Of a stretch of DNA of 64,000 bases, positions 13,585 to 38,271 are shown one piece after another. Source of the DNA: a virus; IMG/VR virus record IMGVR_UViG_3300029197_000003. One strand, 5' to 3'. Under the pieces are notes generated by a model. It was given only the letters and a program-made list of their open reading frames with translations, did no database searches and was not told where the DNA came from. The translations under genes were made by a program, and so were the position numbers. How positions within the stretch are numbered: position 1 is the first letter of the stretch; every line of letters begins with the position of its first letter.

Positions 13585-13630
13585 CTATGAGACGTATTGT
13601 TTATTTTTTGTTCGTTTTGTTAGTTGTTTG

Positions 13631-13666: not shown

Positions 13667-13676
13667 CAATCTTACG

Positions 13677-16600
13677 TCACTCTTCAACCTTACTTAAGGT
13701 TTCCTTAATCTGAGGTGTGTACTCGCTTTGAATCCTGCCAATTTTCTCATCGGCCTCTTCCTGCGTCTTGGAATCCTCAACGGCGCGAGCACATTCTGTC
13801 ATTATTTTCTGCACTAACATCTGTGCATGGTCAAGTGCTGCGCGTTTATCCTTGTCATCGCCAATATAACTTCTTGCGTTGTCAAATTGGCTCTTGACTG
13901 AATTATAGCTTTTCCATAGCATATAACTCATGAAATCCTTGCTCTTAGCAAATTCGTCAAGCTCTTTCACGTATTGACTGTTACCTCTCGCGGATTCTTT
14001 CTGGTAATTATCAATCTTGTAAATCAACTTTTGCCCCTTGTCGTATTCTCGTTGGAATCGCTCTCGTGCTGCACGATTATGCGTGCGGTCGTCTACGGAT
14101 TTAACCAAGGTACGGTAGAATGGTATCTCGTTAGACCTTATCTGCTCTCCTTGGATAATCTTAGCGATAACGCCAGAGGTTCTGCTGACAAATTTACCTG
14201 CGCCCCCTGTGTATGATTCAACGAGATGCTGAACCATTGCAGGGTTGACCTGCACACCTGCACGTTCGTAGTCGCCGCCGCCCTGCACCTCGTTCAACCA
14301 TTTAGACATGGCAATATAATTAGGATTGGTGCTTTGGTAAACATTTCTGAATGCAGGTGTATTCTTGTTGAACGGTTCTTTATAGATTGGCATTCCGAGC
14401 CAATTCTTATTGAAGGCAATTTCTACTTCTGGTCGCACCGCTGTTGGAACGAGAGAAAGCATGCTGCCGTTGCCTTCGGTCAAGTCAAGAGGCAGTATCT
14501 GTGACAATTGCTCAAATGCTTGAAATGTAATCTCGCTCGCTGGTAGATTTTCGCTGCCGCAAACAACCGTCCCCAACAGTTCACCAATGCCGTATGCTGC
14601 GCGATGCTCAATTGACATCGGAAGAGTTAAAAATCTTCCGTCCTTACCCAACGGCAGCATAATGCCCATTCTTCTCATAGATTCAGGCATATCCCAGTAG
14701 TCATCTGGGTCTCCGCCTATGGCAGACAACATCAATGGAATGCACATGGCAGAAAGCATGCCGAGCGTTACTGCTGCGCCGTCCCACATAAGCATTCCTG
14801 CTGTATGGTTAAGATGTAATCTAACATTCTTGTCAAGACCTTGGATGCTGGCATTTGAAAATGCGTAGAAATTCTTGAATACCGATGCTGCATAAGCGCT
14901 GAGAAAATGAAGATTGTTCATGCTGAAAAAGTTGGAAACATCCCATTTCCCTGCTGATTTACTTCCAGCGCCCTTGCGGTTGAAGTTTATAGTTACTTCC
15001 TTTGCATCCATGATAGACTGTTCCATAGAACGCCCCATCTGTCTGCTGGTAAGGAATACAGCAAAGCGCACCCAGTCTTCCGTGCAGCGGCTCAGATATT
15101 CCGCCCCCTTCATGTAAATATTCCAAGCGTCATTAATAACATAATGATGGCCGTAAACAACCTTATTACTAAGGCGTTCAATCTTACTTTTTCCTTCCTT
15201 GGCGCGAAGTTCAGAAAGAGCTTTAGTGATTTCGCCCTTATAACGCTCAACGCCCTTCATAAAAGTATAGCCTGTCTCGCCGCCATTGTAGATAAAATCG
15301 TAAAACGCCTTTTCTAAAGGATTGGACATATCAAGAGTATTGCCATTAAGTCGGTTGACAAGTCGGCCGATATTCTTGACGCACGTAAGATAGTTCTTAA
15401 CGTATCTGCCGTAATATTCCGTCCCCTCCTTTGGTATCAGTGTCGTTGAAAATTCCAAATCTCGCATGGCGTTAGAGATAGCGAACTCAACGTTTCTTGC
15501 CGTAGCCATTCTTGCAATCCAATTGGTCATAGCCTTCAAAGCAATAGCTCCAGGGTTTTCCGTGGCATCTGGGTTTAGTAAGCCATTGATAGCTTGCGCC
15601 GCCCTCGGGTTCCCGTTGATGGTCAGTATGTAGGTCTTGCCTCCACGTTTCACCATAACTTGATGCTCATTCATGTTTCTGCCGAGCACTCGGTATGGAA
15701 TATGCGGTTTCTGATGAGCCAAGGCGTAGGTGTCAGGTTCATCCTTAACCTTTTCCTCCATGTCATCTTGGAAATCAAGCATCACTTGGTTTGCTTCCTC
15801 CGTTGTCATGCCGCTTGTATCTGGCACAGCCACTGGCACCCATGCTCCGCGCGTGCCGTCTCCGTTGTCGTAGTCTTCATCAAATTTCACGTAGAGGTCA
15901 CTGACGCTGATAAGGTCGGATGGGTGGTTTAAGGCGAGGTTCAGCAATTGCTGTTTCATGAGATTGCGGTTAGACTGCATGATGGCCATTTCTGCCATAT
16001 TGCCGATAACTGCAAACGGGTCATCTGCAACACTCTTACGTCCCTTGGCTTTCTTCATGAAGCTACCCGTGCCTCCATTGATTGTTTGGTCGCCAAAATA
16101 TTCGTACACCTCATCACTCGTTGCTTCGTCAAAACCTCTGAGTGGAATGTAGTACTGATACATACTGCTTACATTGTCGTATGTCTCCTTACTTATCAGT
16201 CCTGCCTCATACGCTCTTTGAAGGGAAGACTTTGTAGCAGCACGAATGCTGTCCCACATGCTATCCGTCAGACTGCCAGCCTCGGCCTCCACTTCCTCTA
16301 CATATTTTTGCGCTTCATCCATAGCCTCAGAAACGCTCTGCGTTCCGAATAACTCTGTCAATCCTGCAAAGCTCTTCTCTTCATATTCATCAATGAAGTA
16401 GTCAAGCGTCTTCTGCCCAAATGGGTGCATGGATTTATATCTGTCATAAGCCTCTTCTGCGGCCTTTCCTGCCATATATTTTTGACGCTCCATGCCGTGT
16501 TTGGCCATCACATACGTCTTTATTTCTTCGTATGAACGGCCTGTCTCGCTGCCAAGCGCATGAATGGCCTCTATCATATCTGCATAAAGCGTCCTCTTGT

Positions 16601-19600
16601 AAATATCCATCTGCGCATAATTGCGACTGCTCATAGTGATATAAGCGTTATATGGATTTTCAAAGTCTCCAAGCTTAAAGCCGCCGTTTTTCTCTATGGC
16701 GTGTTGTAAGTCCTGAAGAGGAGAAAGCATGTCAACCCACGCGGTACGTTCAAGGTGCGAACCTCTCGTCACAAGTCTTTCATAAGTATCCTTGGCAAGG
16801 ATTTCCTGCAAATTATCCAGTTCTCCGCGGAGCAAAACGGAGTGCTCCTTCTTCTCCGTGTCGGTCATCGCGTTCTTCCCAGCCTTCAATTTATAACGCA
16901 TGGCAATACGCTCCGCTTCGGCTACATAGCGTCCCTTTTCGCCTGTCTTCAAATTCTGATAGCTACACCAAAGTATATAAGCAAGTTCCCTATCGCTCAA
17001 CTCACGGTTTTTCAGGCCCAAGAACTCCAGCGCACGGTTAAACAGTCTTCGGAGGGTAGCAAACAAGCCGCGTTCTTCTGCCGTCATACGTTCAAAGTCC
17101 GTGCGCTCTGCAAGCCCTGCAAGATATTCTTCTGTGGCGGTACGGAAATTCCATCCTTTTCCGCGACGCAATTCGTTGATAGCGTCTTTCACTTCCTGCG
17201 AAGCTGCCGCAAGAACGCTGTCAAGAAAAGCATCCATCACGTTATGGCCAAATAACTCTCTCAGTCCGTGATGGGCTACGGCTTCATGCAGGATGGTCTG
17301 CGTCACGTCTGCTGCGTCAGTGTTGTTCGACAATACCACGTGGATTTGCCCCGTTCTGGTATCATACCAGCCTTTGGCCGTGGCCTCTCTTCCTTCAAGG
17401 CCTTCGGCGCTTTCATGCACGACAACTCTGCCGCCAAGGTTGAGGTTCTCGGTGGCTTTCTGCGCGGCTTGGGCTGCCTCAACCTTTATCTTGGTGATGG
17501 TTTCTTCAAGCCCAATGTCATCGTTGCGGAACATAATGCCGCCATCTGCAACATTTTTGGAAGAACTTTCGTTAATATCAAATAATGTCGGTATCTTTGC
17601 ATCCGAAGAAAGGAATTCACCAGAGTACGTTACGGACGTAGGGAGTAGGGAGTCTTTTATCTCCATAACTCGCTGGCTGATACCTTTCTTTTTTGATTTA
17701 AAGAAACTCTTTGCAGTAAGGTTTCCCTTTTTTGTACTGCACACCTCAGTCAGGTTATACAATCCGTTACCAGCATCTTTCAAGAAGAAGAACAATTTGC
17801 GTCCGTCTTTCTTGTCCACGCCATAGAGTATGCCGTCTGGCTGGTTCAACACGTCCACCATATTCTGAATATCTTCATCTGTAAGTGGCACATTGTTACC
17901 TTTGTCCTTTTCATTCTCGCCATAATGGTCTGAACGGATATGGTTCAAGTCAGATGGATTGAGAACAAAGTCCACAAACTCTTTAAACTTCAAATCCGAC
18001 AATTTCTCCAAGTATGCCTTCCCGTCTGCACTCAACCGACCGATGCTTGCTGGTTTCCCGACAAACTCTCCTGTCTTTGCTTTTTGAAACAACTCGGTTA
18101 CTCGTTTTTTCATATCTGCTATAGTTGTAGCGACTTGGTGGTTTTCTTCGACCTTACCATCACTGAACTTAGTATCACCGAATCCTGTCTTCCTGCGCAT
18201 AACCACAGTATCAGCGGCATCGAATACGGTAGGCTTACCACCATTCTTCTTACGCTTGTAGGCTTCATGTAGAATAAACGCCCAGTCCTTATCACTCCAC
18301 TTTCTCTTGCCTGGGATTTTTAATCCGTCCAGCAATTTTTGTAGAGCCTTTTGAAGTATGGTGGTTAGCTTGCCCCAGAACGTAAGTTCCTCGGCGCTCA
18401 TCGTCTCAAAGCCGCTTTCACCGATGCGTCCAGCAAGGTCGGCAGCATACTCCTCTGTGGCATCACGCCTGAACTGCTCACTCTTCTTACTTGCCTCAGA
18501 ACGAGCCTTTTCAATGTCAGTATGATATAAAGTGTTAGTATCCTCGCCCTTCGCCTCATGCTCCTTGCGCTTTCTCTCGCGCAATCGGTCCACCTCAGCA
18601 TCGTACATCTTCTGTGCCATGCGGTCAATCGTGCCGCGTATCTCGTCCTTAGACACACGATAAAGTTCATCAAGAGCATTGTTCAGCTTCGCTTCATCGG
18701 GGAACAACACACGTAAACCATCATGTCCCACAACCTCATGCACAAACGTATTTTCAATATCTGCCATGTTAGCGTTGTTTGATACTACAATAGTCACCTC
18801 GCCAGTTATAGGATTGAAGCTGCCTTTCATTCTGCGCTGACGTACACTTGGAAGTGCTGCCACTTCTGCCTCTGTGCGGATTATGCGCACAGGAGTATGC
18901 AGACGTTCAGACAACTCGGTCACTCTCTCGCTCATGGCGCTTTCCATTACTTCCTTGGGTTCTCCGACCCACTTGCCAGCCGTCTTCGCATTGATGCGTG
19001 CAATATCCTCGTTGCTGATGAATGGCAGTTGGCCCTCACGTCCAGGGATAACATCACGACCCTCCCAATTCTGCTTGTCGAGTGCAAGACTTTCTACTGG
19101 TGTCAGTTCCTTACCATCCAACTCGAAGCGATAACCCATCTTTTCCAACTCCCTGCGAACCTGCGGTACAAAGCGGTTGTAGTCTCGGTGGCTCTTCAGA
19201 GCCTCACGCTTGCCAGGATGCTTCTTCCAATACTCGTCAATCATCTTCGCCTCTTCTTCGCGTGTGAGCACCTTGTCTATTTTGCTCCAACGTGAAAGAT
19301 ACAGCGTGCGGCCGTTGTTCCACTGATGTGCGCCAGTAGGCAACAGGGCATAATCAGCATGGAATGGCTCGTCTATCTCCGATTTTGGAATGAGGCTGCG
19401 AACCACAACAAGGTTCGGTCTCTTATTTGCCTCGCCAAACTGCGTGTTCAAAGGTGTTTCAATGGCATGGTCATAGGGGTCGTATGCAGCCCACAAACCC
19501 TTGTCTTTGGGGTTCTTCTTCAGGAAGTACTGCAACTGTGCCTCCTTGGTCTTCGGCTTTACGAATTTCAAGCCATCGTTAATCTGCAACTCTGTGCTCT

Positions 19601-25600: not shown

Positions 25601-28600
25601 TAAAACCCTTGTCATTAAGCAACTTCTTGTAAGTTTCCACATAACCATCCTTACGCAAAGACAGACGCACATCCGTCATGATTCTCTCACCCAAAAGTGT
25701 ACGAGCAGCTTGCGCATCAGGATTATTATCCACAAGTTCCTTGAATAACGGATGTTCCGTTATACGCTTGATAAGTTCAGTGTCGCTGATTGTGTTTGAT
25801 TCTGGCTTATGGCGCAACTGGTCGGGATGAGCATTAACCCACAAGACAGGAGCAAGACCTGTATCTATGAGGTAACCTCCCTCATCATTAGGATGCGCCA
25901 CAACAGCATCAGTCCATGTGCGGCCACCATCGGTTGAATACTGCACCTTGTCACCTGCTGCAAACTTACCATCTGAAACCTCAGTACGCTCAGGTAGATA
26001 CTTGTAGACTTCACGCTTCACCTTATCCAACAGTTCTGAATACGTCACGTCTTTGTTAACCCATACATTTATGCCATAGCGTCTGTCATAGCGGCCATTG
26101 CCATTAGGATTATCCACGCGAAACATGATACGAGTCACTTTGAGGTTGTCACCTTCAAATTTGGCAACACCTCTACCTGCTGATGGTACGAGTTGAATAT
26201 TCACATACAGCTCACGCCCCTCTTCCAATGGCAAGTGCATACTAACATCACCTCCTAAAGGAGCAATGTTTGCCACAGCAAGCGGTTTCGTCTTGCGTTT
26301 ACCTTTCTTGTCGGCCTCTCCGTGTGTAGCCTCGAAGCGGTCAAGTCCAAGGTCGTCAATCAACTGACTTGCAAGGTTTGCCGCATCCTTCACGGCCTTC
26401 TTCTCTGCATTACGCATGTAGCCGTATGCCTCGTTGTAGTCCTTCTCCACCTGCTCAGCCTCATAGTAGCCAAGCAGGGCAAGCTGCTCATTTACCTTGT
26501 CGAGGGTTTCGTCTACTCTTTCGGATGCTCCTCCAAGTTCTTGTCTATCGCTTGAAGTTTCTGCGAGATTTTCAACTTCGCTTGCAACAGACGTTGCTTT
26601 GCTTCCAATAGCATCTGTATTTGCTGCTGTCTGTTTTTCGGTTTCTTTTCGTTGCTCATTTCTTGTTGCTTTTAATTCATTGTTTGCTTTTTCTGCTGCC
26701 ACTTGTGCCTTGCCTTCCTCAACTATCATATTGGCTTGGGCAAACACATCTTTATGAGGCTTATCGAAGTTCTCCACATCAAAGGCATCAACTTCCTCTG
26801 TAGGAGTAAACATCGCTTGGTCATAACCAGGAATGCGTTTTGCACCCTCATAAAACGATTTCAGCCACGGCTTGATTTTATAGCCGAGACGGCTGACCAT
26901 TGCCTTTGCAAATTCGGGGAATTTCACAAAGCCTTGGTCAATATACCCCAATGAGTAGTTCACACCTGCATTGTACACAAAACGTCTCTGTTGAGAGGTC
27001 ATCGCATCGGGGTCACGGAACTTTATACCTCCGTCCAACTCTTCATCGCCAATACCAAGCAATTCACGAAGAATGTCCTCATCATGTTTCATTTCATCAG
27101 TAATGACAAGTTTCTTCTCACCATTCAGCTTTGGTTGCTCAGCTTTAGTCGGCTCTGATGGCTTCTGCTCTGCCACATCTGCGACCTCTACACGGTTTGC
27201 AGGCTTCTTGGCTGCGGTCTTCTTGCTTGCCGTTGGCTTCTTCGGCTCCACTGCATCGCGAAGCTCCTGCGCTGTCATTGGCTGATTATCTGCAACGGCT
27301 TCCTCATTACCAACCATTTCTGCGGCCTTGCGTGCGTCCTCTTCACTACGGAACATCCAACCACCGCTCTCACGGTCTTTCCAACCGCGTGCTGGGGCAA
27401 AGCGTCCCTCGCCTATACGCTCCTTAGCAAACTCCTTGACAGCACGCTCTTGGTCGGCTGTCAAGTTATGGTCAAACGTGAGCAGTGAAACATCACTCGT
27501 CTTACCTTTCTTGTTGGTATAGGTAGATGGAGTGATGGTGTACCCCTTGCTCTCGCTTGTTTTGGTCTGCTTTGTTTCAGCCTTTGTAGGTGTCGCTTCT
27601 TCCTTAGCAGGAGCATTGCCTATTGTCTCTTTCTTCACCCCAGCATACTCCGCAAAAGGTTTGGTCTTTCTCTTGCTCGACTCTATCCACTTTTCAAAGT
27701 CTTCGAGGTTCACTGCCGTCACGTCAATTCTGCGCCCATTCTCCCAACCCTTTTCATAGTTGGAAAGATAGGCGTTCCGTGCCTCTTCCATACTGTTGAA
27801 GCCAAGCATCACCTTGTGTTCGTCAAACGTGCCGTCTGGGTTGTACTGGTCAACCACAAACACATATTTGCCGTCCCACTTATCCATATCTTCTGCAAGG
27901 AACACGTCTATATGGTCGCCGTCCACGCCCTCCGTGCCACGGATATAGCCGTAGGTATTGTTCATCTTCACGCTCCACTTCTTGCCATTGGCATCCGTAC
28001 CGCTACGCTCGCTTCCCTTTGGGTTTTCGATGGTAACGTCAAACGCGCCAACCTTCACGTGGCCCATTTTGTAGTTACCTGCCTTCTTCTGGGCTTCGGT
28101 GGGAGAGGTCTCTACTTCGGCCGACGCGGATTTTACAGCGGATTGGGTGGAATTTTTCGGTCTGTTTTCTTGGGTGGATGGGGAGGATTCTGTAACTTTG
28201 TCGGTAGATAACTCCCTTTCAGCAGGATATTGGTCGGAATTGGGCCGACCCAGAAGTGCCTCTTGTTCGGGAGTTATTTCTTTGCTCTTATATATGATTT
28301 CCTCATTTTCAGAAAGATTTGCATTACTCCTACGACCAAACAGAGTAGTTATAGCGTTTACTTCTATGTCTCGTCCAGCGTTTTTCACATCAGCGCCGAC
28401 AACAACATAATCCCCTTTTTCTGTTTTAAGTGCAGTATATATACGGAATCCCTTCTCTTTATTTTTAAGCTGCGTTATAGCAAACGGATGCTCAATTGCA
28501 TGAGGAATTTGCTCCCATTCAGACTTTGTAAAATCATGCGAACCATCCTTTCCGAAATGACGCGCAATCACACCATACCTGATAGTGAATTTTGAGCCAG

Positions 28601-31600
28601 TCATTCCAAGATGCTTCATAAAATCGGGGGCCTTCGCGAAGTCAAAAAAATTTCTATTGAAAATCTTTGAAGCATAATCCTTTCCTTTTTTGTAGATTGT
28701 ATTAAGGACATTTTCTATTGTGGAGTTTAATTCGGATTCTGCTTCTTCGCTGGCACGCTTCGCTTCTTCTTCAGCCTTTCGTTTCGCCTCCGCTTCAGCT
28801 TTCTCTTTAGCTATCCGTTCCTCCACCACCTTTGCTCTCTGCTGGGCAGGAACTTCTGCTATAGCCTTCCACTTGTCAAGTTCTTCCTGCGCTTTGGCAA
28901 TAGCCTGTGTGCGTACTTTAGCGGCCTTTACCTTTTCTGCAACAGAAACGCCAGAAGGCAATTTTATCTTTTTGGCTTTCTCCAATGCCTTCTCCTTGTC
29001 TTCCACCATAGACTTAGCAATCTCTTCTGCTTCTATCACGTTTCCCGCTTCCTCAGTCAGACCAGTAAAAGCAGTTTCGGCATCTGTCTGCTCATAGATA
29101 GGATTTCCGTTTTCGTCCTTTGGAATGCGCTCCAAGGCCGTAGGCTTATGCTCCTGCTCTGCTTGGGCAATAGCAGGTTTTCCTGCGTCTTCCTGCCCTG
29201 CCTGCGTAGGTGTAGCATCCACCTGTGGCGCGACTTCCGTGTCGCCCACCGCCTCTGTTTCATTCCAAAGCACATTGCCGTTTGCATCAGCAATCTCAGA
29301 AACACCGCTATCGAAGTCCGCAAGAGGGATGCGGTCTACCATTTTCCCATTATATGGCGCGTCAAACTCAATCTCCACGCCGTCTGCTGACAGATTGGTG
29401 ACACGTCCACTGACGGCATTTCCGCTGCCGTCTTTCATCTTGACATGGTAATCGTATTTGACTTCTGGCTTCGTTGGCTTCTCAGTAGCATCCGTAGCTG
29501 ACTGAGGTGTGACACCCTCTGCCGCTCCCTGTGCGTCTTCTTCCGATACGCCCTCTTGCTCCTTGTTGGCCAAGTTGTACTCCTCATTCATCGGCCCTTC
29601 TGCCGCATGGTATTCTTCGTCTGTCTCATCCAAATACGGCTCAATAGCCTCAAACTTACGTCCGCGGCCGCGTTGCTCTCGGAATACATCAATAGGGATA
29701 AGATAGTCATTGTTGTTTTGGTCAACGACTAAGACGCTTGCAGGATTCCCTTGTTCGTCATTGAAAACACATTTAATACCAACTTGCCGTCTATGTCCCT
29801 CTTCGTCCATCAGAATACCGCCTTGACCTGCCAGCGGAGTGTCCATGTTTAGATTGATAAGTCTCTGCTGTTCCTTATTTTCAGCATCAATCTTATCGTA
29901 CTTCCGTTGACGCTCGGTCATAGCATCGGATTCTTCAACAATACCTTCCACTTCGGATGCAGGAATCATTTCAATAACACCATTACCTTCACTGACAACA
30001 ACCGTTTCACCTGTAATGCTTCCGTTTTCGTATCTTCCACGAATAAGGAACACTGGCTTCTCCCTTCCTTTCACGTTCACCAGAATAACCTTTCCAGAGC
30101 CTCCTTCGCTGTCTGCTTCGTTCTCGAAGGTTATCTGTCTGATTACGCTGTCTGCGTGCTGTCTGCGTATGCTTTCGTCAGAGGTGATGCCATCCATCGC
30201 GCCCTTCTGCTGCTCACGGGCATTCAGGTAGGCCGACAGTGCAGCGTTTGCGGCCTTCTCGTCAAGCCCATTTTCCTTTGCAACTTCCACACCTTTTTTC
30301 AACTGCTCGGCAGGGGTCTCGCCAAGCGTATCGAGGTATGCGTCTATATCATCAGTAACGCCAAGTGCTGACATAGCCATTTCTCGCGTGTCAGCAAATG
30401 CCTGCTGAGCCTGCGCATATTCCTGCGGTGTCTGCATGTTGCGACCTTCTGCGTAAGCATGAATGGTCATGGCGTTCATTTCGTTCAACTCCTCGCCCGT
30501 GAGTGAGAAGGAATACTTTTCGCTAACAGCATTATTAAATACGGCTTGTGCCTTCTGTGCTCTCACGTAATTAAGGAACGCCTTCTTTTGTTCGTCTGAG
30601 AGAGATTTATTCTGGCATACGCCTGCATATATAGCGTTCACCAATGGCTCACCCTCCAGTCTGAGGATTGTGTTTTGAATCTTGTCCCAGTTCTCGTTGC
30701 CAAATAAACGTCTTGCGTTGGCTTCTGCTTTATCATAAGCGCTATTGACAGAGCGGAGCGTTCTGTAATATTTGACAGAACTTGCAGTGGAGGAGAAACC
30801 AAGCATAAAGATTGAGGAGGCCCAGACACTCAATGCCGTGTCAAGATTTTGTCTGCTATCAAAGATGTCTGCAAAGGTATAATTTTCATCGAAGGTAGCC
30901 GTCATCGGATTGGCGATATATTCTTCCAATACCTCATTTACAAATCCATCATAGCCACCTTTTTCAAATGTGCCATACACCTTTGACATAGCCTTGGCAA
31001 AAGCGCCGTTTTGTATCATGTGGATTGTTTTGTTATACGGCAAGGCTTCGCCAAAACTGCGGAGGCTAATCTTCCCGATGCCAAAAGCCTTGGCCACAGG
31101 CTCCAATACGTAAGTACCAACACGCTCTGAGACGTTTTGTACGAGCGTGTTTAATCCTGAGTGTAACAAGGAGTGCCCCCAGCTCTTTTCTTGCTGTGTG
31201 CCCGTTACGACAATACGTTGATTTTCATCAAACGTGTAATTCATCAAGCCCATCTTCTCAATTGCAGCATCAGAGATGATGCGCGGCATCTGAAATGAGC
31301 TATCAATCACACCAGCGGCATTGATAGCTGCCAGTCGCGTTGTTGCTCGGATGGTGGTATCAAAGAGCCAGTTCGTGCCGTATTTCGCGGCCATTCTGCT
31401 TCCACCCCTGATAATACCTCTTGCGGCAACATTTCCTGCGCCATAGGTCGCTATCGCACCAATGGTGAAGGGGAACGAATATCCAGCACCGAATGCTGGG
31501 CCATAAAGACGGCCTTCCCCGTGTCTATGAAATGCCGACATTGACTCTTGACTGAGCGAACGTGCAAGCCCTAAGCGGTCTTTGGCTTCCTGACCCATTT

Positions 31601-33515
31601 TCCCTTCGTGCGCTTTCACTGCAACAAGGTTTTCACGCAAATTATAAAGACCGAAAGTCCAGTTATCCAAATCGGAGATACCTTCAAGAAAACCACCCCA
31701 GGCTCCTACTTTATCTCCTGTGCGTAAGGCTTCTAACGCCTGTGTATATTTCTTAATGGATTCTTCTAATTTTCTTATATTTCCCCTTGCGAGCGCAACT
31801 TCATCGCTACGTTTTACGCCTTCTTCAGTAGAAGATTCTAAGAGGTCTTTGTAAAAGCTTGGATTAAACATTTCTGGAATATAAGACCCCTTGACTGCAT
31901 CATGGTCTCCAAATTGCTTAAGCCGCTCCTGCTCTTTCTTTAGCGCTTCTCTGGCCTGCGCAATCTGCTGTTGCAAATACGTCTCCTTGTATGGAAGTTT
32001 TTTGGAGATTTCGTTATCCAACTCCACCTTGGCTTTTGCTATGGCATCCTCTTCGCTTTCTCCATTCTTAACGACAACAGGCACTATTTGCAATCTGTCA
32101 TCAGGGTTTAACAACACCCCCTCTTCGTTGAATTTTCCTCCTAAACCTATTTTAATAAGTTCCTGCGCATCATCCCATCTGCGCTGCTCAATCATGTACG
32201 GAAAATAGATAATATGGCAGACTTCCCCGTTTTGAAGGAAGTTGCCGACCACTCTGTTTTTCTCGTAGGGGTCTGTATAATCCTTTCCTTCTTCGCCGAA
32301 GGTCATCTTTTCGTATTGCCGTCTGAATAGCTCGCGCTGCGCTTCTACTCCTCCCCTTAAAATGCTTGGGTCTGGCGCTTGAAGCGGTCTGATACGGCCG
32401 TCTTGAAATAATACAAAAATCGTCTTATTCGTGCCATTATTATAAATGTCGCTTGCCATTAAGGCTGTATAATTGGCATGGTACATTCCGTTCAACGACA
32501 CATCGTCGGGGTATGCACCATCGGAGCGTTTCAGTCTTCTCTTTTGGTCTTCCTGCTCTAATTCAGCGGTTATCTTGTTTAATTTATTCTTATCGTAATT
32601 TAATGCTTCATTCCATCTTAATTCAGAAATCCATGCAGGTCTCTCCTTGCCTAATGCTTGAAGATTCCTCGCTTGAAGATAGACCGCATTAGGAGACATG
32701 CTCGCTGTCTCCTGTGTATAAATACTACCAAGCCCTCTAAGAGCCTTCCACTTTTCATACCTCTCCTGAATATCGCCGCCAAGCGATGCAAAAGTGTATT
32801 CCTTTGCACCGCCGCATACTTGATTCTCAAAAGTAAGTGCCGCCTCAAATACTGAATCCAAGTCTGCATCCTTTGGCAATGAGCGTATAGGGATATATCG
32901 TGCTGTCTGATTCAAGCGTACATAAGAATCCTCTTTTGGCTTCTGATAAGCCTTCTTCTTTAGGTCTTTTGCTGCCTGATTTGCGAGTTCTTCAAGGGAT
33001 TTTGAGTAAGCGTTGTTCGATATTTCTTCTGCGGCCTGTAGATAATAGTCCGTTCCTGCATTCCTCATGCGACTTACATTCGGATTGAAATCTTGAAGAG
33101 TGTCGATAGGGCGTTGATTTTCACTGACTGCCTCAGCGCTCACCTCTGGCTTTTCTTCTTTCTTAGCTTCTGGCTTTTTTGTTGGCGTGACTTCCACGGG
33201 CTTCATATCCTTGGATATAGAATCCGCGCCCATAGGCGTTTGTTGTGTCTGCGGGTCTATGGCGTGAAGACCTATCTTTGAAGCAAAATCTTCGTAGGTA
33301 TCGCCAATATAATCTACACCTCCCTTCTTCATAAAGTCGTACACTTCTTTACGATATGTGTAACCCTTTATACCTGGGGCGTAAAAATCATTATAGAAAG
33401 TATCGTAGTCCTTGTCATAGGCATTATTTAACTTCAACGTATTATATAATGCCGTGGAATATTTATCACTGCTGATAGGTCTTTTATCTTCCGTATTCTC
33501 CATATTTATCATCAC
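13677..33515 (-). CDS. giant polyvalent multidomain protein (6,612 aa): PPase-like, N6-adenine MTase, SNF2 helicase, two HExxxH modules, two small His-rich nuclease-like modules, membrane-spanning C-terminal region
   Basis: A single stop-free frame of 19.8 kb. The track start at 33515 is GTG. ATG at 33512 forms a TGATG junction with the upstream gene. Domain motifs are listed as separate features. Confidence 0.9.
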   Translation of the reverse strand: MMINMENTEDKRPISSDKYSTALYNTLKLNNAYDKDYDTFYNDFYAPGIKGYTYRKEVYDFMKKGGVDYIGDTYEDFASKIGLHAIDPQTQQTPMGADSISKDMKPVEVTPTKKPEAKKEEKPEVSAEAVSENQRPIDTLQDFNPNVSRMRNAGTDYYLQAAEEISNNAYSKSLEELANQAAKDLKKKAYQKPKEDSYVRLNQTARYIPIRSLPKDADLDSVFEAALTFENQVCGGAKEYTFASLGGDIQERYEKWKALRGLGSIYTQETASMSPNAVYLQARNLQALGKERPAWISELRWNEALNYDKNKLNKITAELEQEDQKRRLKRSDGAYPDDVSLNGMYHANYTALMASDIYNNGTNKTIFVLFQDGRIRPLQAPDPSILRGGVEAQRELFRRQYEKMTFGEEGKDYTDPYEKNRVVGNFLQNGEVCHIIYFPYMIEQRRWDDAQELIKIGLGGKFNEEGVLLNPDDRLQIVPVVVKNGESEEDAIAKAKVELDNEISKKLPYKETYLQQQIAQAREALKKEQERLKQFGDHDAVKGSYIPEMFNPSFYKDLLESSTEEGVKRSDEVALARGNIRKLEESIKKYTQALEALRTGDKVGAWGGFLEGISDLDNWTFGLYNLRENLVAVKAHEGKMGQEAKDRLGLARSLSQESMSAFHRHGEGRLYGPAFGAGYSFPFTIGAIATYGAGNVAARGIIRGGSRMAAKYGTNWLFDTTIRATTRLAAINAAGVIDSSFQMPRIISDAAIEKMGLMNYTFDENQRIVVTGTQQEKSWGHSLLHSGLNTLVQNVSERVGTYVLEPVAKAFGIGKISLRSFGEALPYNKTIHMIQNGAFAKAMSKVYGTFEKGGYDGFVNEVLEEYIANPMTATFDENYTFADIFDSRQNLDTALSVWASSIFMLGFSSTASSVKYYRTLRSVNSAYDKAEANARRLFGNENWDKIQNTILRLEGEPLVNAIYAGVCQNKSLSDEQKKAFLNYVRAQKAQAVFNNAVSEKYSFSLTGEELNEMNAMTIHAYAEGRNMQTPQEYAQAQQAFADTREMAMSALGVTDDIDAYLDTLGETPAEQLKKGVEVAKENGLDEKAANAALSAYLNAREQQKGAMDGITSDESIRRQHADSVIRQITFENEADSEGGSGKVILVNVKGREKPVFLIRGRYENGSITGETVVVSEGNGVIEMIPASEVEGIVEESDAMTERQRKYDKIDAENKEQQRLINLNMDTPLAGQGGILMDEEGHRRQVGIKCVFNDEQGNPASVLVVDQNNNDYLIPIDVFREQRGRGRKFEAIEPYLDETDEEYHAAEGPMNEEYNLANKEQEGVSEEDAQGAAEGVTPQSATDATEKPTKPEVKYDYHVKMKDGSGNAVSGRVTNLSADGVEIEFDAPYNGKMVDRIPLADFDSGVSEIADANGNVLWNETEAVGDTEVAPQVDATPTQAGQEDAGKPAIAQAEQEHKPTALERIPKDENGNPIYEQTDAETAFTGLTEEAGNVIEAEEIAKSMVEDKEKALEKAKKIKLPSGVSVAEKVKAAKVRTQAIAKAQEELDKWKAIAEVPAQQRAKVVEERIAKEKAEAEAKRKAEEEAKRASEEAESELNSTIENVLNTIYKKGKDYASKIFNRNFFDFAKAPDFMKHLGMTGSKFTIRYGVIARHFGKDGSHDFTKSEWEQIPHAIEHPFAITQLKNKEKGFRIYTALKTEKGDYVVVGADVKNAGRDIEVNAITTLFGRRSNANLSENEEIIYKSKEITPEQEALLGRPNSDQYPAERELSTDKVTESSPSTQENRPKNSTQSAVKSASAEVETSPTEAQKKAGNYKMGHVKVGAFDVTIENPKGSERSGTDANGKKWSVKMNNTYGYIRGTEGVDGDHIDVFLAEDMDKWDGKYVFVVDQYNPDGTFDEHKVMLGFNSMEEARNAYLSNYEKGWENGRRIDVTAVNLEDFEKWIESSKRKTKPFAEYAGVKKETIGNAPAKEEATPTKAETKQTKTSESKGYTITPSTYTNKKGKTSDVSLLTFDHNLTADQERAVKEFAKERIGEGRFAPARGWKDRESGGWMFRSEEDARKAAEMVGNEEAVADNQPMTAQELRDAVEPKKPTASKKTAAKKPANRVEVADVAEQKPSEPTKAEQPKLNGEKKLVITDEMKHDEDILRELLGIGDEELDGGIKFRDPDAMTSQQRRFVYNAGVNYSLGYIDQGFVKFPEFAKAMVSRLGYKIKPWLKSFYEGAKRIPGYDQAMFTPTEEVDAFDVENFDKPHKDVFAQANMIVEEGKAQVAAEKANNELKATRNEQRKETEKQTAANTDAIGSKATSVASEVENLAETSSDRQELGGASERVDETLDKVNEQLALLGYYEAEQVEKDYNEAYGYMRNAEKKAVKDAANLASQLIDDLGLDRFEATHGEADKKGKRKTKPLAVANIAPLGGDVSMHLPLEEGRELYVNIQLVPSAGRGVAKFEGDNLKVTRIMFRVDNPNGNGRYDRRYGINVWVNKDVTYSELLDKVKREVYKYLPERTEVSDGKFAAGDKVQYSTDGGRTWTDAVVAHPNDEGGYLIDTGLAPVLWVNAHPDQLRHKPESNTISDTELIKRITEHPLFKELVDNNPDAQAARTLLGERIMTDVRLSLRKDGYVETYKKLLNDKGFSEKIADKAFAKRHIVSKNDEGGYFYEDGINEDAVAALPEGIHINDDVTRRSENGGVQHTASEKPVGKPKSAAQKTTKKVKPEQPVGDLFAGPLDKPNNNGTADSNSSSPSQTVAGGERPNTVGIDETGTDGGKRTTAVTGTDGERSTDASRENGREAADGAVHGTDEVGGIQPPVGNRGRDESAANRTVSNGATDERGRVAGPRTVQTGETDGGGKELSSGEPASSTGEGSRPSAVKKQRTPVRKFTNNFHYGTDGNEADNYTPAQRLEGNVSAIEVIAKLFKEGRKATDEEKQILSRFRGWGQIDQLSKFYSVDQMRRNTYGNSPYHRLADAIDTLDPDGKKGVFAGIKRAALSSYYTPTKIASAMNSFLSLAGFKGGTFLDPSMGNGIFEGTLPKDIQGRTMITGVELDWLSGQISRALYPDADVRICGFEKSGLTPNSQDVVTSNVPFGDIEVNDPTWKNDNSPIKRSAQKRIHNYYAVKMLELTRPGGIVAMMTSPAVMDTQSNQHIRRYIAEQGEFLGAVRLPDNTFQGTGAMADIIYIRKWKDEEDAQKTRENPDYVAREQAFLSSAETTAPNKRNGEKQKVSHNAYYASNRKNMIGDVVAGNQYNDKSFGLHSELTTDQIAKEVEKAVKRIVGDRKGMLFDTTRTSREVKQAVREEYKGDGNWVSTGNLVIQDGKVGVLTATKNEYGEVTRVFEEQPQLAKQKMRIIAMGEVRTAMKELIAGQIDGLSDTKLNMLRAKLKRAYGEFVSKYGKLQDTDNAVILSDIDGYTLQALEVWKGGKFQGLSDIFTKNTIKPALKLEDAKTPQEAITTSLAEYGEIRGEYIEKTLGADWFEQCGDLVFKEPNATDRYVTRDEYLSGDVVAKLEEAKTAAATDPTFERNVKELEQVQPATIPFDDITIHLGARWIPQEVLNDFVKETLGLHASSSRNYEWVDGERREIIKSGVVYVPETDSFEINIEEKELGGQADDWKTADKSIKEIFQVALEDKDFRIVRKDKDGNTWIDQEATELANSKVADLREHFEQWLPGNDARIQIMERAYNDRFNRIVLRKWDGSHLNVPGLMGKELRPHQKDAVWMLINNRGGIVDHIVGAGKTLVMQSAIMEMRRMGIAKKPMIVALKSTVPQIAREFKEAYPTARVLAPSEKDFSTENRKKFFANISLNDYDCIIVSHEQYCKIPHSEEAEGDVVNEQLAQLDAMIEYLYGTGDKSQLTKRQIKSLEKRRQNLHAKLEKRLDRSTDREFCFENMGIDYLFVDECHQFKSLPYVTSYQNVAGLGEASGSNKAVALLTGIRHLQKMHQGDKGTVFLSGTTITNSLVEIYNLLNYLRPRKLEQLGMPTFDAWASTFAVHSSELEAGVSNEFKMKDRFRYFDNVPELSQLYAEIADVRNDYNLQLPKPKVDGKTVIVPQSDAVAEINREVVKMLRTKDGSYFGIHPINPKKFPWGLVASGISAKAAVSPRLVFPDMDDSVGKISYCCDNIKKSYDEMKEQKGVQLVFCELGVPTKGNKYDAYHDIINRLTKDYGIPRDEIAYIQQVKNDTEKEALFQKVRDGKVRILIGGTRNMGTGVNVQTRITDLHMLTVPWQPADLEQCIGRGSRQGNVVAHDFLNNKVRVHYYATEGSLDLYKYQLLDAKGKMFTQFKMGTISGERSFDEGDADENGNIDPAQMVALLSGNPIIFEKSKQDKLVKKLKSLYNGFLRDQQRKRQNYETVTKKVENLKRLISLSDSDVHDLQREGFKPDDKGTYPSKVKVTVEDSYYGQNFDKPKEAGQYILEQLKNNKKVVLAGFGQRADIVFVTDDDLLSSHYEVQIGGNNAWSIRYTKRMPQDPTQAGLVFRSLLEQIIHNNEVYHREYDTNSEMLKTMPKGDAPFSKQKELDEAIAKQKELDAEYNKLGQSEEDKTKFRLLDADDPKAMELEALPDSELVPVYRNVQAFEDDTLGSPMAFSDAETGERRTLEGGKWNYSNPPQIKLTDEQQRKLDELNKNGYIMVDGKKSTELQINDGLKFVKPKTKEAQLQYFLKKNPKDKGLWAAYDPYDHAIETPLNTQFGEANKRPNLVVVRSLIPKSEIDEPFHADYALLPTGAHQWNNGRTLYLSRWSKIDKVLTREEEAKMIDEYWKKHPGKREALKSHRDYNRFVPQVRRELEKMGYRFELDGKELTPVESLALDKQNWEGRDVIPGREGQLPFISNEDIARINAKTAGKWVGEPKEVMESAMSERVTELSERLHTPVRIIRTEAEVAALPSVRQRRMKGSFNPITGEVTIVVSNNANMADIENTFVHEVVGHDGLRVLFPDEAKLNNALDELYRVSKDEIRGTIDRMAQKMYDAEVDRLRERKRKEHEAKGEDTNTLYHTDIEKARSEASKKSEQFRRDATEEYAADLAGRIGESGFETMSAEELTFWGKLTTILQKALQKLLDGLKIPGKRKWSDKDWAFILHEAYKRKKNGGKPTVFDAADTVVMRRKTGFGDTKFSDGKVEENHQVATTIADMKKRVTELFQKAKTGEFVGKPASIGRLSADGKAYLEKLSDLKFKEFVDFVLNPSDLNHIRSDHYGENEKDKGNNVPLTDEDIQNMVDVLNQPDGILYGVDKKDGRKLFFFLKDAGNGLYNLTEVCSTKKGNLTAKSFFKSKKKGISQRVMEIKDSLLPTSVTYSGEFLSSDAKIPTLFDINESSSKNVADGGIMFRNDDIGLEETITKIKVEAAQAAQKATENLNLGGRVVVHESAEGLEGREATAKGWYDTRTGQIHVVLSNNTDAADVTQTILHEAVAHHGLRELFGHNVMDAFLDSVLAAASQEVKDAINELRRGKGWNFRTATEEYLAGLAERTDFERMTAEERGLFATLRRLFNRALEFLGLKNRELSDRELAYILWCSYQNLKTGEKGRYVAEAERIAMRYKLKAGKNAMTDTEKKEHSVLLRGELDNLQEILAKDTYERLVTRGSHLERTAWVDMLSPLQDLQHAIEKNGGFKLGDFENPYNAYITMSSRNYAQMDIYKRTLYADMIEAIHALGSETGRSYEEIKTYVMAKHGMERQKYMAGKAAEEAYDRYKSMHPFGQKTLDYFIDEYEEKSFAGLTELFGTQSVSEAMDEAQKYVEEVEAEAGSLTDSMWDSIRAATKSSLQRAYEAGLISKETYDNVSSMYQYYIPLRGFDEATSDEVYEYFGDQTINGGTGSFMKKAKGRKSVADDPFAVIGNMAEMAIMQSNRNLMKQQLLNLALNHPSDLISVSDLYVKFDEDYDNGDGTRGAWVPVAVPDTSGMTTEEANQVMLDFQDDMEEKVKDEPDTYALAHQKPHIPYRVLGRNMNEHQVMVKRGGKTYILTINGNPRAAQAINGLLNPDATENPGAIALKAMTNWIARMATARNVEFAISNAMRDLEFSTTLIPKEGTEYYGRYVKNYLTCVKNIGRLVNRLNGNTLDMSNPLEKAFYDFIYNGGETGYTFMKGVERYKGEITKALSELRAKEGKSKIERLSNKVVYGHHYVINDAWNIYMKGAEYLSRCTEDWVRFAVFLTSRQMGRSMEQSIMDAKEVTINFNRKGAGSKSAGKWDVSNFFSMNNLHFLSAYAASVFKNFYAFSNASIQGLDKNVRLHLNHTAGMLMWDGAAVTLGMLSAMCIPLMLSAIGGDPDDYWDMPESMRRMGIMLPLGKDGRFLTLPMSIEHRAAYGIGELLGTVVCGSENLPASEITFQAFEQLSQILPLDLTEGNGSMLSLVPTAVRPEVEIAFNKNWLGMPIYKEPFNKNTPAFRNVYQSTNPNYIAMSKWLNEVQGGGDYERAGVQVNPAMVQHLVESYTGGAGKFVSRTSGVIAKIIQGEQIRSNEIPFYRTLVKSVDDRTHNRAARERFQREYDKGQKLIYKIDNYQKESARGNSQYVKELDEFAKSKDFMSYMLWKSYNSVKSQFDNARSYIGDDKDKRAALDHAQMLVQKIMTECARAVEDSKTQEEADEKIGRIQSEYTPQIKETLSKVEE
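14712..14807 (-). other. predicted transmembrane hairpin in the C-terminal region (aa ~6237-6268)
   Basis: AGMLMWDGAAVTLGMLSAMCIPLMLSAIGG is followed by the acidic DPDDYWD. Confidence 0.45.
16926..17423 (-). other. domain: HExxxH module copy 2 (aa ~5365-5530)
   Basis: Sequence is GQIHVVLSNNTDAADVTQTILHEAVAHHGLRELF...ATEEYLAGLAERTDFERMTAEERGLF. HEAVAH lies at 17271-17288. It is collinear with copy 1. Confidence 0.5.
17645..17975 (-). other. domain: small His-rich module 2 (aa ~5180-5290), paralog of module 1
   Basis: Sequence is LNPSDLNHIRSDHYGENEKDKGNNVPLTDEDIQNMVDVLNQPDGILYGVDKKDGRKLFFFLKDAGNGLYNLTEVCSTKKGNLTAKSFF. Confidence 0.35.
18336..18878 (-). other. domain: HExxxH module copy 1 (aa ~4880-5060)
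   Basis: Sequence is GEVTIVVSNNANMADIENTFVHEVVGHDGLRVLF...ATEEYAADLAGRIGESGFETMSAEELTFW. HEVVGH lies at 18723-18740. Confidence 0.5.
20616..22418 (-). other. domain: SNF2-family helicase/translocase (aa ~3700-4300)
   Basis: Motifs are LRPHQKDAV, GAGKT (22296-22310), LFVDECHQFK (DECH at 21807-21818), FLSGTTITNSLVEIYNLLNYLRP, GGTRNMGTGVNVQ and QCIGRGSRQG (20784-20813). Confidence 0.8.
23916..24866 (-). other. domain: N6-adenine DNA methyltransferase (gamma-type order, aa ~2884-3200)
   Basis: SSYYTPTKIASAM is the YTP motif. FLDPSMGNGIF is the SAM-binding motif I (24429-24461). TSNVPFGD is catalytic motif IV of (N/D)PP(F/Y) type (NVPF at 24249-24260). Confidence 0.8.
27696..28088 (-). other. 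domain: family-I inorganic pyrophosphatase-like fold (aa ~1814-1940)
   Basis: VTIENPKGSE compares with the PPase EIPKGSxNKYE. NTYGYIRGTEGVDGDHIDVF compares with the E. coli NYGYINHTLSLDGDPVDVL. FDEHKVM compares with EDAKLV. Confidence 0.55.
28325..28715 (-). other. domain: small His-rich module 1 (aa ~1600-1730), barnase/EndoU/RelE-like nuclease candidate
   Basis: Sequence is FTIRYGVIARHFGKDGSHDFTKSEWEQIPHAIEHPFAI...FRIYTALKTEKGDYVVVGADVKNAGRDIEVNAITTLF. Conserved His residues are followed by a beta-rich core. It is paralogous to module 2. Confidence 0.35.
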
Positions 33516-35472: not shown

Positions 35473-35519
35473 AGTAGTCTGTTTTATAAAGATATATATA
35501 TGAGGCAAATATAATCATG

Positions 35520-37888: not shown

Positions 37889-37986
37889 AAAATCATGATT
37901 TTTCACGAAAATAATAACACGGCGTGTTATGCTTTCAATATCTTTAAAATACAGATGGGGCGTACCAATAAGCACGCCCCATCTCT

Positions 37987-38271
37987 TCACGTCAAAATCT
38001 TGTTTACACTCTCTTTCAGCATACGACACATAAGTGTTTTCATGCGGTAGATGCGTGAATTTTTCAAGGCATTTACCCTTTGCTGGCTCATGCCGCTTAA
38101 CTCAGCAATAGTGCCTTCGCTCATTCCTTTTTCGATTAGGTAATCAACGAAAACCACACGTGCATTCACACTTCGTTCACTTCTACTTGTCGTGAACTCT
38201 TCAAAAGATAAACCGCTTGCGTTCATTGTAGCTTCAACGGCTTTATCAAATAATATCTGTAATTGTTTCAT
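37987..38271 (-). CDS. HTH DNA-binding protein
   Basis: ATG at 38271 (MKQLQILF). GMSEGTIAELSGMSQQRVNAL is an HTH of sigma-r4/LuxR style. Confidence 0.45.
   Translation of the reverse strand: MKQLQILFDKAVEATMNASGLSFEEFTTSRSERSVNARVVFVDYLIEKGMSEGTIAELSGMSQQRVNALKNSRIYRMKTLMCRMLKESVNKILT

Follow-up and report, generated by a model that had tools for sequence, protein, structure and literature searches.

The 64,000-nucleotide (nt) stretch of viral DNA analysed here (IMG/VR record IMGVR_UViG_3300029197_000003; hereafter, the window) is dominated by one giant gene on its minus strand, whose open reading frame (ORF) takes up 19,839 bases, or 31.0% of the window, and encodes a protein of 6,612 amino acids (aa). 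The gene forms a cassette with two smaller ORFs, of 194 and 471 aa, that lie downstream of a P22-like portal gene (Table 1). By sequence comparison, the protein is a mosaic, in which an N-terminal LPD14 module and a C-terminal HExxxH/LPD38 module can be regarded as a 'chassis' that encloses a 'cargo' of ~3,500 aa.

Table 1. Parts of the giant gene and other features of the window, with the evidence for each.
Feature	Residues (aa)	Window position	Strand	Evidence or remark
Giant ORF	1-6612	13677..33515	minus	6,612 aa from GTG; 6,608 aa if the ATG at codon 5 is the start
Small N-terminal domain	16-130	33126..33470	minus	35-50% identity to short ORFan proteins
N-terminal 'chassis' module	560-1200	29916..31838	minus	Gly-rich stretch (aa 673-700) and LPD14-like region (aa 801-912)
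K/E/A-rich predicted coiled coil	~1500-1600	28716..29018	minus	Read from sequence
MuF_C, PBECR-type predicted RNase	1656-1745	28281..28550	minus	Pfam PF18819, E 3.8e-10
InPase-like domain, polyvalent type	1807-1945	27681..28097	minus	Pfam PF18823, E 1e-54
G/T/D/E/R-rich low-complexity linker	2725-2872	24900..25343	minus	Relaxed constraint, dN/dS 0.26-0.38
Gamma-class N6-adenine DNA methyltransferase	2873-3190	23946..24899	minus	Pfam N6_Mtase, E 9e-10 (aa 3077-3190)
Superfamily 2 (SF2; SNF2/ResIII-like) helicase	3659-4279	20679..22541	minus	Pfam ResIII, SNF2-rel_dom, Helicase_C
M1, putative zincin-like metallopeptidase (HEVVGH ... TEEY)	~4890-5110	18186..18848	minus	Paralogue of M2
PBECR3 predicted RNase	5171-5278	17682..18005	minus	Pfam PF18812, E 1.6e-13
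M2 (HEAVAH ... ATEEY)	~5376-5560	16836..17390	minus	AlphaFold2 model, conservation in homologues
C-terminal 'chassis' module	5560-6612	13680..16838	minus	PLRGF motif (aa 5791), hydrophobic segment, LPD38
Hydrophobic segment	6241-6269	14709-14795	minus	Kyte-Doolittle 1.98; only segment of the protein >1.3
LPD38	6271-6466	14118-14705	minus	Pfam E 7e-33; 114.7 bits vs cut-off 27
Intrinsic terminator hairpin and U-tract		about 13630-13675	minus	Folding energy vs shuffles
471-aa Q/A/K/E-rich protein		33512..34927	minus	Stop overlaps giant-gene start; homologue of BKO1-TP3 gp56
194-aa A/Q-rich protein		34924..35508	minus	Gly/Ala-rich hydrophobic N-terminus; homologue of BKO1-TP3 gp57, 43% identity
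P22-like portal protein gene		35912..38029	minus	Pfam P22_portal, E 3.5e-42; just upstream of the 194/471/giant cassette
Integrase		10845-12065	plus	Window gene
CI-like repressor		9165-9935	plus	Window gene

The initial annotation had described one uninterrupted frame covering ~31% of the window, translationally coupled to two low-complexity proteins that follow the portal gene and closed by a strong intrinsic terminator, and each of these points has been borne out. Our own translation agrees with the ORF listing on 6,612 codons and has a single, terminal stop; the second-longest ORF in the window has 951 aa. If uniform codons are assumed, the probability of such a frame is (61/64)^6612, or ~1e-138, and an open frame arising by chance is therefore implausible. 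The first possible start codon, a GTG, shares bases with the TGA that closes the upstream 471-aa ORF (GTGA); ATG codons also occur at positions 2 and 5, the latter being the start chosen by gene callers on related contigs. The 471-aa and 194-aa ORFs overlap by 4 nt. The terminator begins 9 nt past the stop of the giant gene and comprises a G+C-rich stem of 12 base pairs, an 8-nt loop and a U-tract. Its hairpin has a folding energy of -25.5 kcal/mol (z = -7.7), which was equalled by none of 200 shuffled sequences, and it is absent from the output of a simple pattern scanner.

Independent contigs confirm that the ORF is not an assembly chimera. A scan of IMG/VR with aa 3000-3700 as the query returned 21 loci, mostly on contigs of ~57-64 kb; 18 of them contain the complete frame, flanked by a stop at either side, with a length of 6,458-6,789 aa, and the remaining three are truncated by contig ends. 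Four of these loci, of which two are complete and two truncated, make up a clade with only 53-57% identity in the core, and the open frame has thus been kept across substantial divergence. Selection was estimated as the ratio of nonsynonymous to synonymous substitution rates (dN/dS; Nei-Gojobori method, three relatives compared), the sole usable relative for the N-terminal 1,550 aa being a 92%-identical sibling. The strongest purifying selection of the whole gene acts on the methylase-helicase core (0.02-0.05); the values are 0.016-0.06 over aa 3001-4500, 0.016-0.03 for the methylase and 0.03-0.05 for the helicase. Ratios of 0.05-0.09 were obtained for aa 4501-5100, 0.11-0.13 for the window around the inorganic-pyrophosphatase-like (InPase) domain and 0.25-0.38 for the linker-rich aa 2101-3000. 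The N-terminal 1,550 aa gave 0.09-0.45 in windows with enough substitutions, some windows of this module being substitution-poor (one returned a meaningless value of 6.2 at a dS of 0.001). Taken as a polyvalent DarB-like gene, the frame is almost certainly real. It has no megablast match among GenBank phages and PLSDB plasmids, and when aa 3000-3700 were searched against 185,579 species genomes, 29 pattern matches came up, none of them confirmed. Tandem repeats in the ORF amount to one trivial 11-13-nt array, and neither tRNAs nor a template/variable repeat pair like that of diversity-generating retroelements was found.

The domain map was drawn from tiled Pfam searches of the giant protein, together with PHROGs. 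All motifs quoted in the initial annotation are present at the residues given for them, and the profile searches support the methylase, SNF2/Helicase_C, InPase, PBECR and LPD families alike. A different outcome was obtained for the first ~1,000 aa, which had been regarded as motif-free: they form a recognisable, rare and conserved module of the LPD14 type. The stretch at aa 673 (PAFGAGYSF...) that had been described as Gly-rich and hydrophobic is indeed Gly-rich, although it is not strongly hydrophobic. LPD14 itself gives a borderline match (Pfam E-value (E) 1e-5, 26.1 bits against a cut-off of 27). At 25-28% identity, residues ~560-1200 resemble the N-terminal regions of further giant proteins; in three of these, a clear LPD14 stands at the aligned position, and the borderline call is backed by this homology. 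Two of the three also carry a mid-chain InPase and a C-terminal LPD38, and the effectors between LPD14 and the C-terminus vary across the three (kinase, ADP-ribosyltransferase, ParB, PBECR1, LPD3). When aa 1-1200 were compared by HMMER with 1.84 billion representative proteins, only 45 hits were returned, and a word-index search with the N-module found only four close relatives (91-97% identity). The small domain at the extreme N-terminus also occurs in short proteins, and a Pfam search of nine of them assigned no family. The N-module extends from aa 1 to about 1,450-1,800, as its boundary with the cargo is not sharp, and MuF_C falls in this junction zone. MuF_C is present alone, the N-terminal Phage_Mu_F head-binding domain of MuF-fused phage toxins and of the minor head proteins SPP1 gp7 and Mu F having no Pfam match at E<0.05.

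The cargo (aa ~1794-5350) consists of the InPase-like domain, a DarB-type dyad of methylase and SF2 helicase, the first HExxxH module (M1) and PBECR3. The inorganic-pyrophosphatase-like domain of the initial annotation is confirmed by a match of 184.5 bits that spans positions 1-135 of the 135-position profile. Acidic residues in IENP, DGDHID, VVDQ and FDEH, which we take to be metal-binding from what is generally known of family I pyrophosphatases and from Iyer et al. 2017, are retained across ten homologues. Its sole relative among PDB sequences (phmmer) is the C-terminus of the Pa193 portal (9b41_L residues 633-763, E 1.4e-26), which fits the statement that this clade of InPase domains is fused to portals and packaged (Iyer et al. 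2017). The same search returned weak methylases as the only other matches of the N-terminal half of the giant protein and nothing for the C-terminal half. The two His-rich modules that had been read as nuclease-like proved to be MuF_C and PBECR3, both of which are phage BECR-fold predicted RNases (Iyer et al. 2017).

The predicted N6-adenine methylase and SNF2 helicase are likewise supported by Pfam, by collinearity with DarB of phage P1 and by intact motifs. DarB residues 23-274 align with aa 2873-3184 (E 4.6e-30), and its residues 780-861, 963-1178 and 1461-1546 match aa 3659-4279. In particular, methylase motif I is LDPSMGNG (DPSMGNG at aa 3021) and motif IV is NVPF (aa 3086), which is identical in P1 DarB; helicase motifs I (GAGKT, aa 3736), II (DECH, aa 3900), III (SGT) and VI (GRGSRQG, within QCIGRGSRQG at aa 4235) follow. 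All six motifs are intact in an alignment with P1 DarB, gp01 of Klebsiella phage LASTA, gp01 of Vibrio phage VvAW1 and gp55 of Bacteroides phage BKO1-TP3. ResIII (4e-9) and SNF2-rel_dom (2e-8) match aa 3710-3990 and Helicase_C (4e-6) matches aa 4171-4244, and phrog_10089, annotated as 'DarB-like antirestriction', covers aa ~1380-5010 with E down to 5.6e-262. No transglycosylase domain is detectable in the giant protein. Membership in the cellular defence systems MADS, BREX (PglX) or DISARM (DrmD) was considered and rejected, the NCBIfam/PADLOC hits being all sub-threshold and limited to the methylase and helicase.

M1 and the second HExxxH module (M2), which contain HEVVGH at aa 4926 and HEAVAH at aa 5410, are paralogues (29% identity, E 4e-22). 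HEAVAH and the downstream ATEEY are at least 90% conserved in 47 M2 homologues, with H71, E72, H76, E123 and E124 invariant. In the AlphaFold2 model of M2 (pLDDT 83, pTM 0.74), an N-terminal helix precedes three strands, after which come the HExxxH helix and, further on, a helix that bears TEEY. A zincin core with such an order of elements and a metallopeptidase (MPTase) clade with HEXXXH have been described for polyvalent proteins (Iyer et al. 2017), and M2 is provisionally assigned to the metallopeptidases because its motif and predicted topology fit that core. The modules are thus likely proteases, although profile and fold searches did not confirm the assignment (see below).

Where homologues are long enough to judge, M2 nearly always lies directly upstream of the C-terminal module, and the C-terminal chassis unit (aa ~5350-6612) comprises this HExxxH protease-like domain followed by a helical LPD38 module of ~1,050 aa. 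A family with no assigned function, phrog_14770, covers aa 5350-6582 (E 1e-217), and aa 5560-6612 have at least 239 homologues with 33-39% identity. In an alignment of 57 sequences of the C-module, 81 positions are invariant, many of them polar (for example, in K-H..E-R, PLRGF, NGNPRAAQ..NG, GGETG and DAKE...NFN.KG). Helices make up most of the AlphaFold2 model of the module (pLDDT 75.5, pTM 0.71), which also has two small sheets. A transmembrane hairpin had been proposed at aa ~6237-6268; the hydrophobic segment exists, although it is one segment and not a hairpin. In BFVD, the model has 67 matches at E < 1e-3, the best of which reach a TM-score of up to 0.77. The 50 matches listed of these 67 are all from phages or other viruses, most are later pieces (suffix _2 to _4) of split long proteins, and the matched proteins carry dissimilar enzymes (transglycosylase, RelA/SpoT, methylase). 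M2 and the C-module also exist as proteins of 1,000-1,800 aa in Bacteroidales genomes.

The division into chassis and cargo emerges from two reciprocal comparisons. The same cargo is found with another chassis in the IMG/VR relatives, which are 80-88% identical overall across aa ~1794-5350; in the two that were analysed by windows (L005 and L016), the methylase-helicase region reaches 95-99% identity. The N- and C-modules of the same relatives are only ~24-34% identical (approximate values from global MAFFT and local BLAST), and their portals 52-58%. Conversely, the same chassis is found with another cargo in a protein of 5,704 aa (P0125), whose N-module (aa 9-1455) is 96% and whose C-unit (aa 5318-6612) is 97% identical to those of the giant protein. 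Its middle of ~2,600 aa contains PBECR1, an InPase (52% identity), a ResIII/AAA_34 helicase, a small NPPF methylase (read by eye) and MuF_C. These reciprocal swaps indicate that cargo has been exchanged between diverged phages, and the end modules track the phage lineage. Moreover, the order LPD14 ... InPase ... variable effectors ... LPD38 recurs in distant giant proteins.

A related fragment also occurs away from phage genes. A 1,751-aa gene (L028:10001-15256; ENA ERZ28661931 scaffold_277) has no phage gene within 10 kb and is surrounded by bacterial housekeeping genes (AspRS, GpsA, PGI, PGM, sulfatase, GH25). It encodes an InPase (75% identity to aa 1770-2008), ~900 aa of other sequence and then a counterpart of aa 5349-5878 at 96% identity. 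Variants of this type (P0009-P0018) show up to 98% identity to aa 5349-5878, and eight of the ten break off at the same point. A phage polyvalent gene may have left this gene behind as an orphan remnant, or part of such a gene may have been domesticated here.

All relatives examined keep the portal gene and the giant gene linked, and the gene order is variable. The portal lies upstream of the 194/471/giant cassette in the window and in a sibling contig. In BKO1-TP3, as in the 20 IMG/VR relatives that reach past the gene end, it directly follows the giant gene; one locus (L023) ends inside the giant gene and is not informative on this point. The arrangement is that of a late operon, with the giant gene coupled to portal-linked genes and an operon terminator at its end. 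The 471-aa protein was assigned to no family by PHROG and Pfam searches. A 92-aa basic ORF (35556-35834, plus strand) lies between the portal gene and the cassette on the opposite strand, at the same place as in the sibling. This sibling phage (L003:10001-17806; ENA ERZ27242911 k141_315943) has a portal 99.6% and an N-module 92% identical to those of the window. Its giant gene stops at aa 2524, and the contig then ends in a transposase-like frame of the insertion sequence (IS) type (...LSNRESLRDLIVALKAHRAKQYHLGLG...), which suggests that an IS insertion disrupts the gene. The sibling copy contains a ddrB-ParB domain, which is not present in the protein of the window.

Taken together, the giant protein is probably a DarB-like polyvalent effector polyprotein of ~735 kDa, composed of a delivery chassis and an exchangeable cargo, that is packed into the head and injected. 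It is quite likely, in particular, that the protein is packaged in the virion and ejected, because two homologues, gp69 of Burkholderia phage JC1 and gp47 of Stx phage phi24B, are virion proteins. For JC1 gp69, 51 unique peptides were recovered from virions purified on CsCl (PMC9144972); phi24B gp47 is abundant in the virion and invisible by cryo-EM, and a role as an encapsidated ejection protein has been proposed for it (bioRxiv 10.64898/2026.04.10.717836). Packaging is further supported by the late structural context and portal linkage seen in all relatives, and by the occurrence of InPase domains fused to portal C-termini. The chances that the protein counters restriction by methylation or helicase action in cis are about even.

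A plausible course of events begins with late expression of the giant protein together with the portal-linked 194-aa and 471-aa proteins, as the operon arrangement shows. A few copies would enter the procapsid by way of the chassis modules, as the presence of homologues in virions suggests. At infection, they would leave through the portal/tail channel with or before the DNA, and the C-module and the two small proteins may assist in crossing the envelope. The HExxxH domains would then cleave the polyprotein into working units, following the proposal of Iyer et al. 2017. The methylase-helicase would work in cis on the entering genome and blunt restriction in the manner of P1 DarB, and the InPase and RNase-like domains would target host nucleotide signals or RNAs, again after Iyer et al. 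2017.

Several observations weigh against this reading. Presence in particles is argued from the proteomics of homologues, and cleavage and DNA methylation by the giant protein itself are inferred. A chain of ~735 kDa must thread a narrow portal channel. The gene of the sibling phage is interrupted (stop at aa 2524 beside the IS-type transposase frame), and prophage persistence, at least, can therefore do without the full gene. P1 DarB is a head-packaged virion protein that shields incoming DNA from type I restriction (literature cited in PMC9144972 and Iyer et al. 2017); its packaging requires DarA, Hdf, DdrA and Ulx. When P1 DarA, DdrA, DdrB and Ulx (Hdf not included) were compared with the whole window by tblastn, there was no hit at E<0.01, and neither was there one for gp7, gp16 and gp20 or for gp14 of P22; BLAST also missed the portal detected by Pfam, and a remote relationship is thus possible. 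As the Dar partners went undetected, any packaging would have to rely on a different route. Furthermore, Pfam gave no match to MPTase-PolyVal in the giant protein and none of any kind in M1 and M2, and hhalign found no relationship between the M2 alignment and the C-terminal region of P1 DdrB. The fold comparison suggested by the initial annotation gave no significant PDB match for either module: the best Foldseek hit of the M2 model has E 0.57 (the ArdC metalloprotease entry 6sna ranks second, E 0.6), and that of the C-module model has E 0.23 with TM <= 0.1. Since PDB offers no structural relative for the C-module, its envelope-bridging role is conjectural.

A more specific version of the reading is put forward tentatively, as a possibility that falls short of being probable. 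The LPD14 N-module and the HExxxH/LPD38 C-module might together constitute a dedicated, lineage-specific injection vehicle, loaded into the head beside the portal and able to thread an arbitrary effector cassette of ~3,500 aa through the tail, in which the C-module would be a new, possibly enzymatic, ejectosome or translocon and no inert linker. The proposal draws on the dozens of invariant polar residues in the ~1,050-aa C-module and on its lack of a PDB relative. If it is true, phages would possess a modular 'cargo slot' whose contents are swapped by recombination, much as in polymorphic toxin systems.

Less probably, the polyprotein is cut before or during head assembly, with only some fragments packaged (as with P1 DdrB) and the rest active in the producer cell, for example in methylating progeny DNA before packaging. 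Two conserved HExxxH modules sit between functional blocks; P1 DdrB is processed before packaging (Iyer et al. 2017); and a methylase in the producer cell would protect progeny DNA too. However, peptides of JC1 gp69 were found in virions (PMC9144972), and N4 virion RNA polymerase and ArdC are transferred full-length despite their MPTase domains (Iyer et al. 2017); the observations are compatible with either possibility.

Less probable again is a mainly structural role, in which the N- and C-modules form a trans-envelope conduit comparable to P22 gp16 or T7 gp16 and the enzymatic middle is a passenger with little effect on infection. The methylase-helicase core is the most strongly constrained part of the protein and has moved between diverged phages nearly unchanged, which argues for an important function of its own; nor is there similarity to known ejection proteins by BLAST or a relative of solved fold. 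On the other hand, the C-module is the most widespread part, its BFVD fold matches occur in giant proteins with different enzymes, and it holds the sole membrane-type segment. An ejectosome role has been proposed for gp47 by the phi24B authors, and the giant gene occupies the place of the last ejection-protein gene in VvAW1 and LASTA. The ejectosome and effector roles are not mutually exclusive.

It is highly improbable that the protein is a non-packaged intracellular multi-enzyme of lytic growth or lysogeny, acting as a replication/modification factory or as a superinfection-exclusion factor. Methylase-helicase fusions do exist in cellular defence (hence the weak MADS, BREX PglX and DISARM DrmD hits), and a chromosomal orphan fragment exists; however, the defence-model hits are far under their cut-offs (e.g. 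15-23 bits vs 500-720), the gene lies in a late structural operon, coupled to portal-linked genes and ending at the operon terminator, and in the two homologue families for which this has been tested, the proteins belong to the virion. Finally, the mosaicism of the relatives and the sibling interrupted beside an IS element are all that points to an assembly chimera or a decaying pseudogene still open by chance, and both can be dismissed as effectively refuted by the 18 independent intact frames, the strong purifying selection, the whole-length collinearity with gp55 of a cultured phage and the ~1e-138 probability of such a frame.

In these gut Bacteroidales phages, a single gene takes up about one third of a genome of ~60 kb, which implies that co-injected enzymes against host defences bring a large benefit in a habitat dense with restriction and other defence systems. 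The occurrence of the same cargo on different chassis and of the same chassis with different cargo amounts to an unusually clean natural experiment, for which the cultured relatives BKO1-TP3 and BS-TP4 are at hand. Such relatives make it possible to test the packaging of a ~0.7-MDa protein and its ejection via the portal (a matter that the phi24B authors explicitly raise for so large a protein; bioRxiv 10.64898/2026.04.10.717836), the release of effectors by the HExxxH modules and the targets of InPase and PBECR. Proteins of this kind may be what determines host range in Bacteroides phages and could be engineered as protein-delivery cassettes.

As for the rest of the window, it belongs to a temperate phage. 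Besides the integrase and the CI-like repressor, it encodes an Erf recombinase, an exonuclease, a replication-initiator-like gene, a large terminase, a scaffold-like protein, an SU10-type major capsid protein and a GH108-type endolysin. The 20 larger ORFs scanned, a subset of those in the window, gave no match to any tail tube, sheath or tape-measure family, and the morphology is therefore probably podovirus-like. The host is most likely a gut Bacteroidales species, because the nearest cultured relatives are the temperate Bacteroides phages BKO1-TP3, BS-TP4 and BF1-TP2 and the C-module homologues bear names from Bacteroides, Parabacteroides and Prevotella. An array of repeats with a 12-nt period (TT.CGTGTTA-like; 2167-2373) lies in or beside the replication-initiator/DnaD-like ORF 1588-2607, and these repeats are probably origin iterons. 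In the immunity region, a 49-nt direct repeat (76% identity) is found at 7964-8012 and 9034-9082, just upstream of ORF 8076-8504 and of the CI-like repressor gene, respectively, and its copies are candidate operator or promoter duplicates. Three tail-fibre-like ORFs on the minus strand (39668-40852, 41893-42828 and 46018-46932) have in common the N-terminal motif W..LEGR.F.VDV.T..., which is probably a common anchor domain of alternative receptor-binding proteins, and two of them share a 50-nt DNA repeat (40643 / 42610). A family-2 glycosyltransferase gene (42859-43758, minus strand; Pfam Glycos_transf_2 on the orthologue in the sibling phage) lies inside this block and may serve lysogenic conversion or surface modification.

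Among known systems, the closest is BKO1-TP3, a temperate Bacteroides phage of ~65 kb. Its gp55 (XPO94969.1, GenBank PQ571269; 5,553 aa), auto-annotated as 'DarB-like antirestriction', is collinear with the giant protein over almost the whole length, with identities of 23.5% in the N-module, 45% in the InPase, 28% in the methylase-helicase and 38% in M2 plus the C-module. Moreover, gp57 and gp56 are homologous to the 194-aa and 471-aa ORFs and the portals are 58% identical. The differences are that gp55 is ~1,060 aa shorter, that its identity is only 23-45% and that the portal lies downstream of the giant gene; gp55 goes undiscussed in the paper that reports the isolation of BKO1-TP3.

P1 DarB (2,255 aa) shares the methylase-helicase dyad, collinear with aa 2873-4279 and including NVPF and helicase motifs I, II, III and VI. 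In contrast to the giant protein, it has the dyad only, without InPase, PBECR, HExxxH, LPD14 or LPD38, and P1 is a myovirus. Giant DarB-like virion proteins of Bcep22-like and related podophages are represented by Bcep22 gp75, JC1 gp69 (4,515 aa), LASTA gp01 (4,433 aa) and VvAW1 gp01 (3,640 aa). They are ~31% identical to the giant protein over ~1,700 aa of the methylase-helicase region, VvAW1 also matching the LPD38 region, and their genes stand last in the structural module, after genes for internal or ejection proteins (in LASTA and VvAW1, the preceding genes are annotated as internal virion or DNA-ejection proteins). They differ in that their hosts are proteobacterial, they are 2,100-3,000 aa shorter and a lytic transglycosylase is annotated in some records; the gene for JC1 gp69 takes up 22% of its genome, compared with 31% of the window. 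BLAST of the neighbour proteins of LASTA, VvAW1 and 933W against the window gave no hits. The orthologous proteins 933W p72 and phi24B gp47 of temperate Stx podoviruses (2,806-2,811 aa; LPD5, LPD1, LPD38, MuF-C) resemble the other end of the giant protein: residues 2051-2693 of 933W p72 align with aa 5770-6466 (24% identity, E 3e-39), and MuF_C occurs in both systems. However, these proteins contain neither the methylase-helicase dyad nor InPase and are less than half the size.

The broadest comparison is with the polyvalent proteins surveyed by Iyer et al. 2017, which share the methylase-helicase dyad, InPase, PBECR/MuF-C, LPD14, LPD38 and, by motif and predicted topology, the HEXXXH MPTase, have a virion-gene neighbourhood in phages and have been proposed to be delivered with the DNA. 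The giant protein likewise combines several unrelated effector domains in one chain, in a late/virion gene setting and together with LPD38 and a borderline LPD14, and it has the DarB-like succession of N6-adenine methylase motifs I and IV and a collinear SF2 helicase. The class is already established, and the giant protein is an elaboration of it and not a departure from it. The initial annotation had called it a polyvalent protein in an extreme form: it is polyvalent, and extreme for a phage, although not for the class, which includes a plasmid protein of 12,242 aa (Iyer et al. 2017). What sets it apart is the size, at 6.6 kaa (relatives to 6.79 kaa) against 5,553 aa in the next-longest phage homologue compared, the lack of a detectable transglycosylase domain and the unusually clear frame of N-module, cargo and MPTase-LPD38 module with its reciprocal swaps. 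The survey of Iyer et al. 2017 describes no such fixed frame of an LPD14 N-module and an MPTase-LPD38 C-module between which cargo is reciprocally exchanged.

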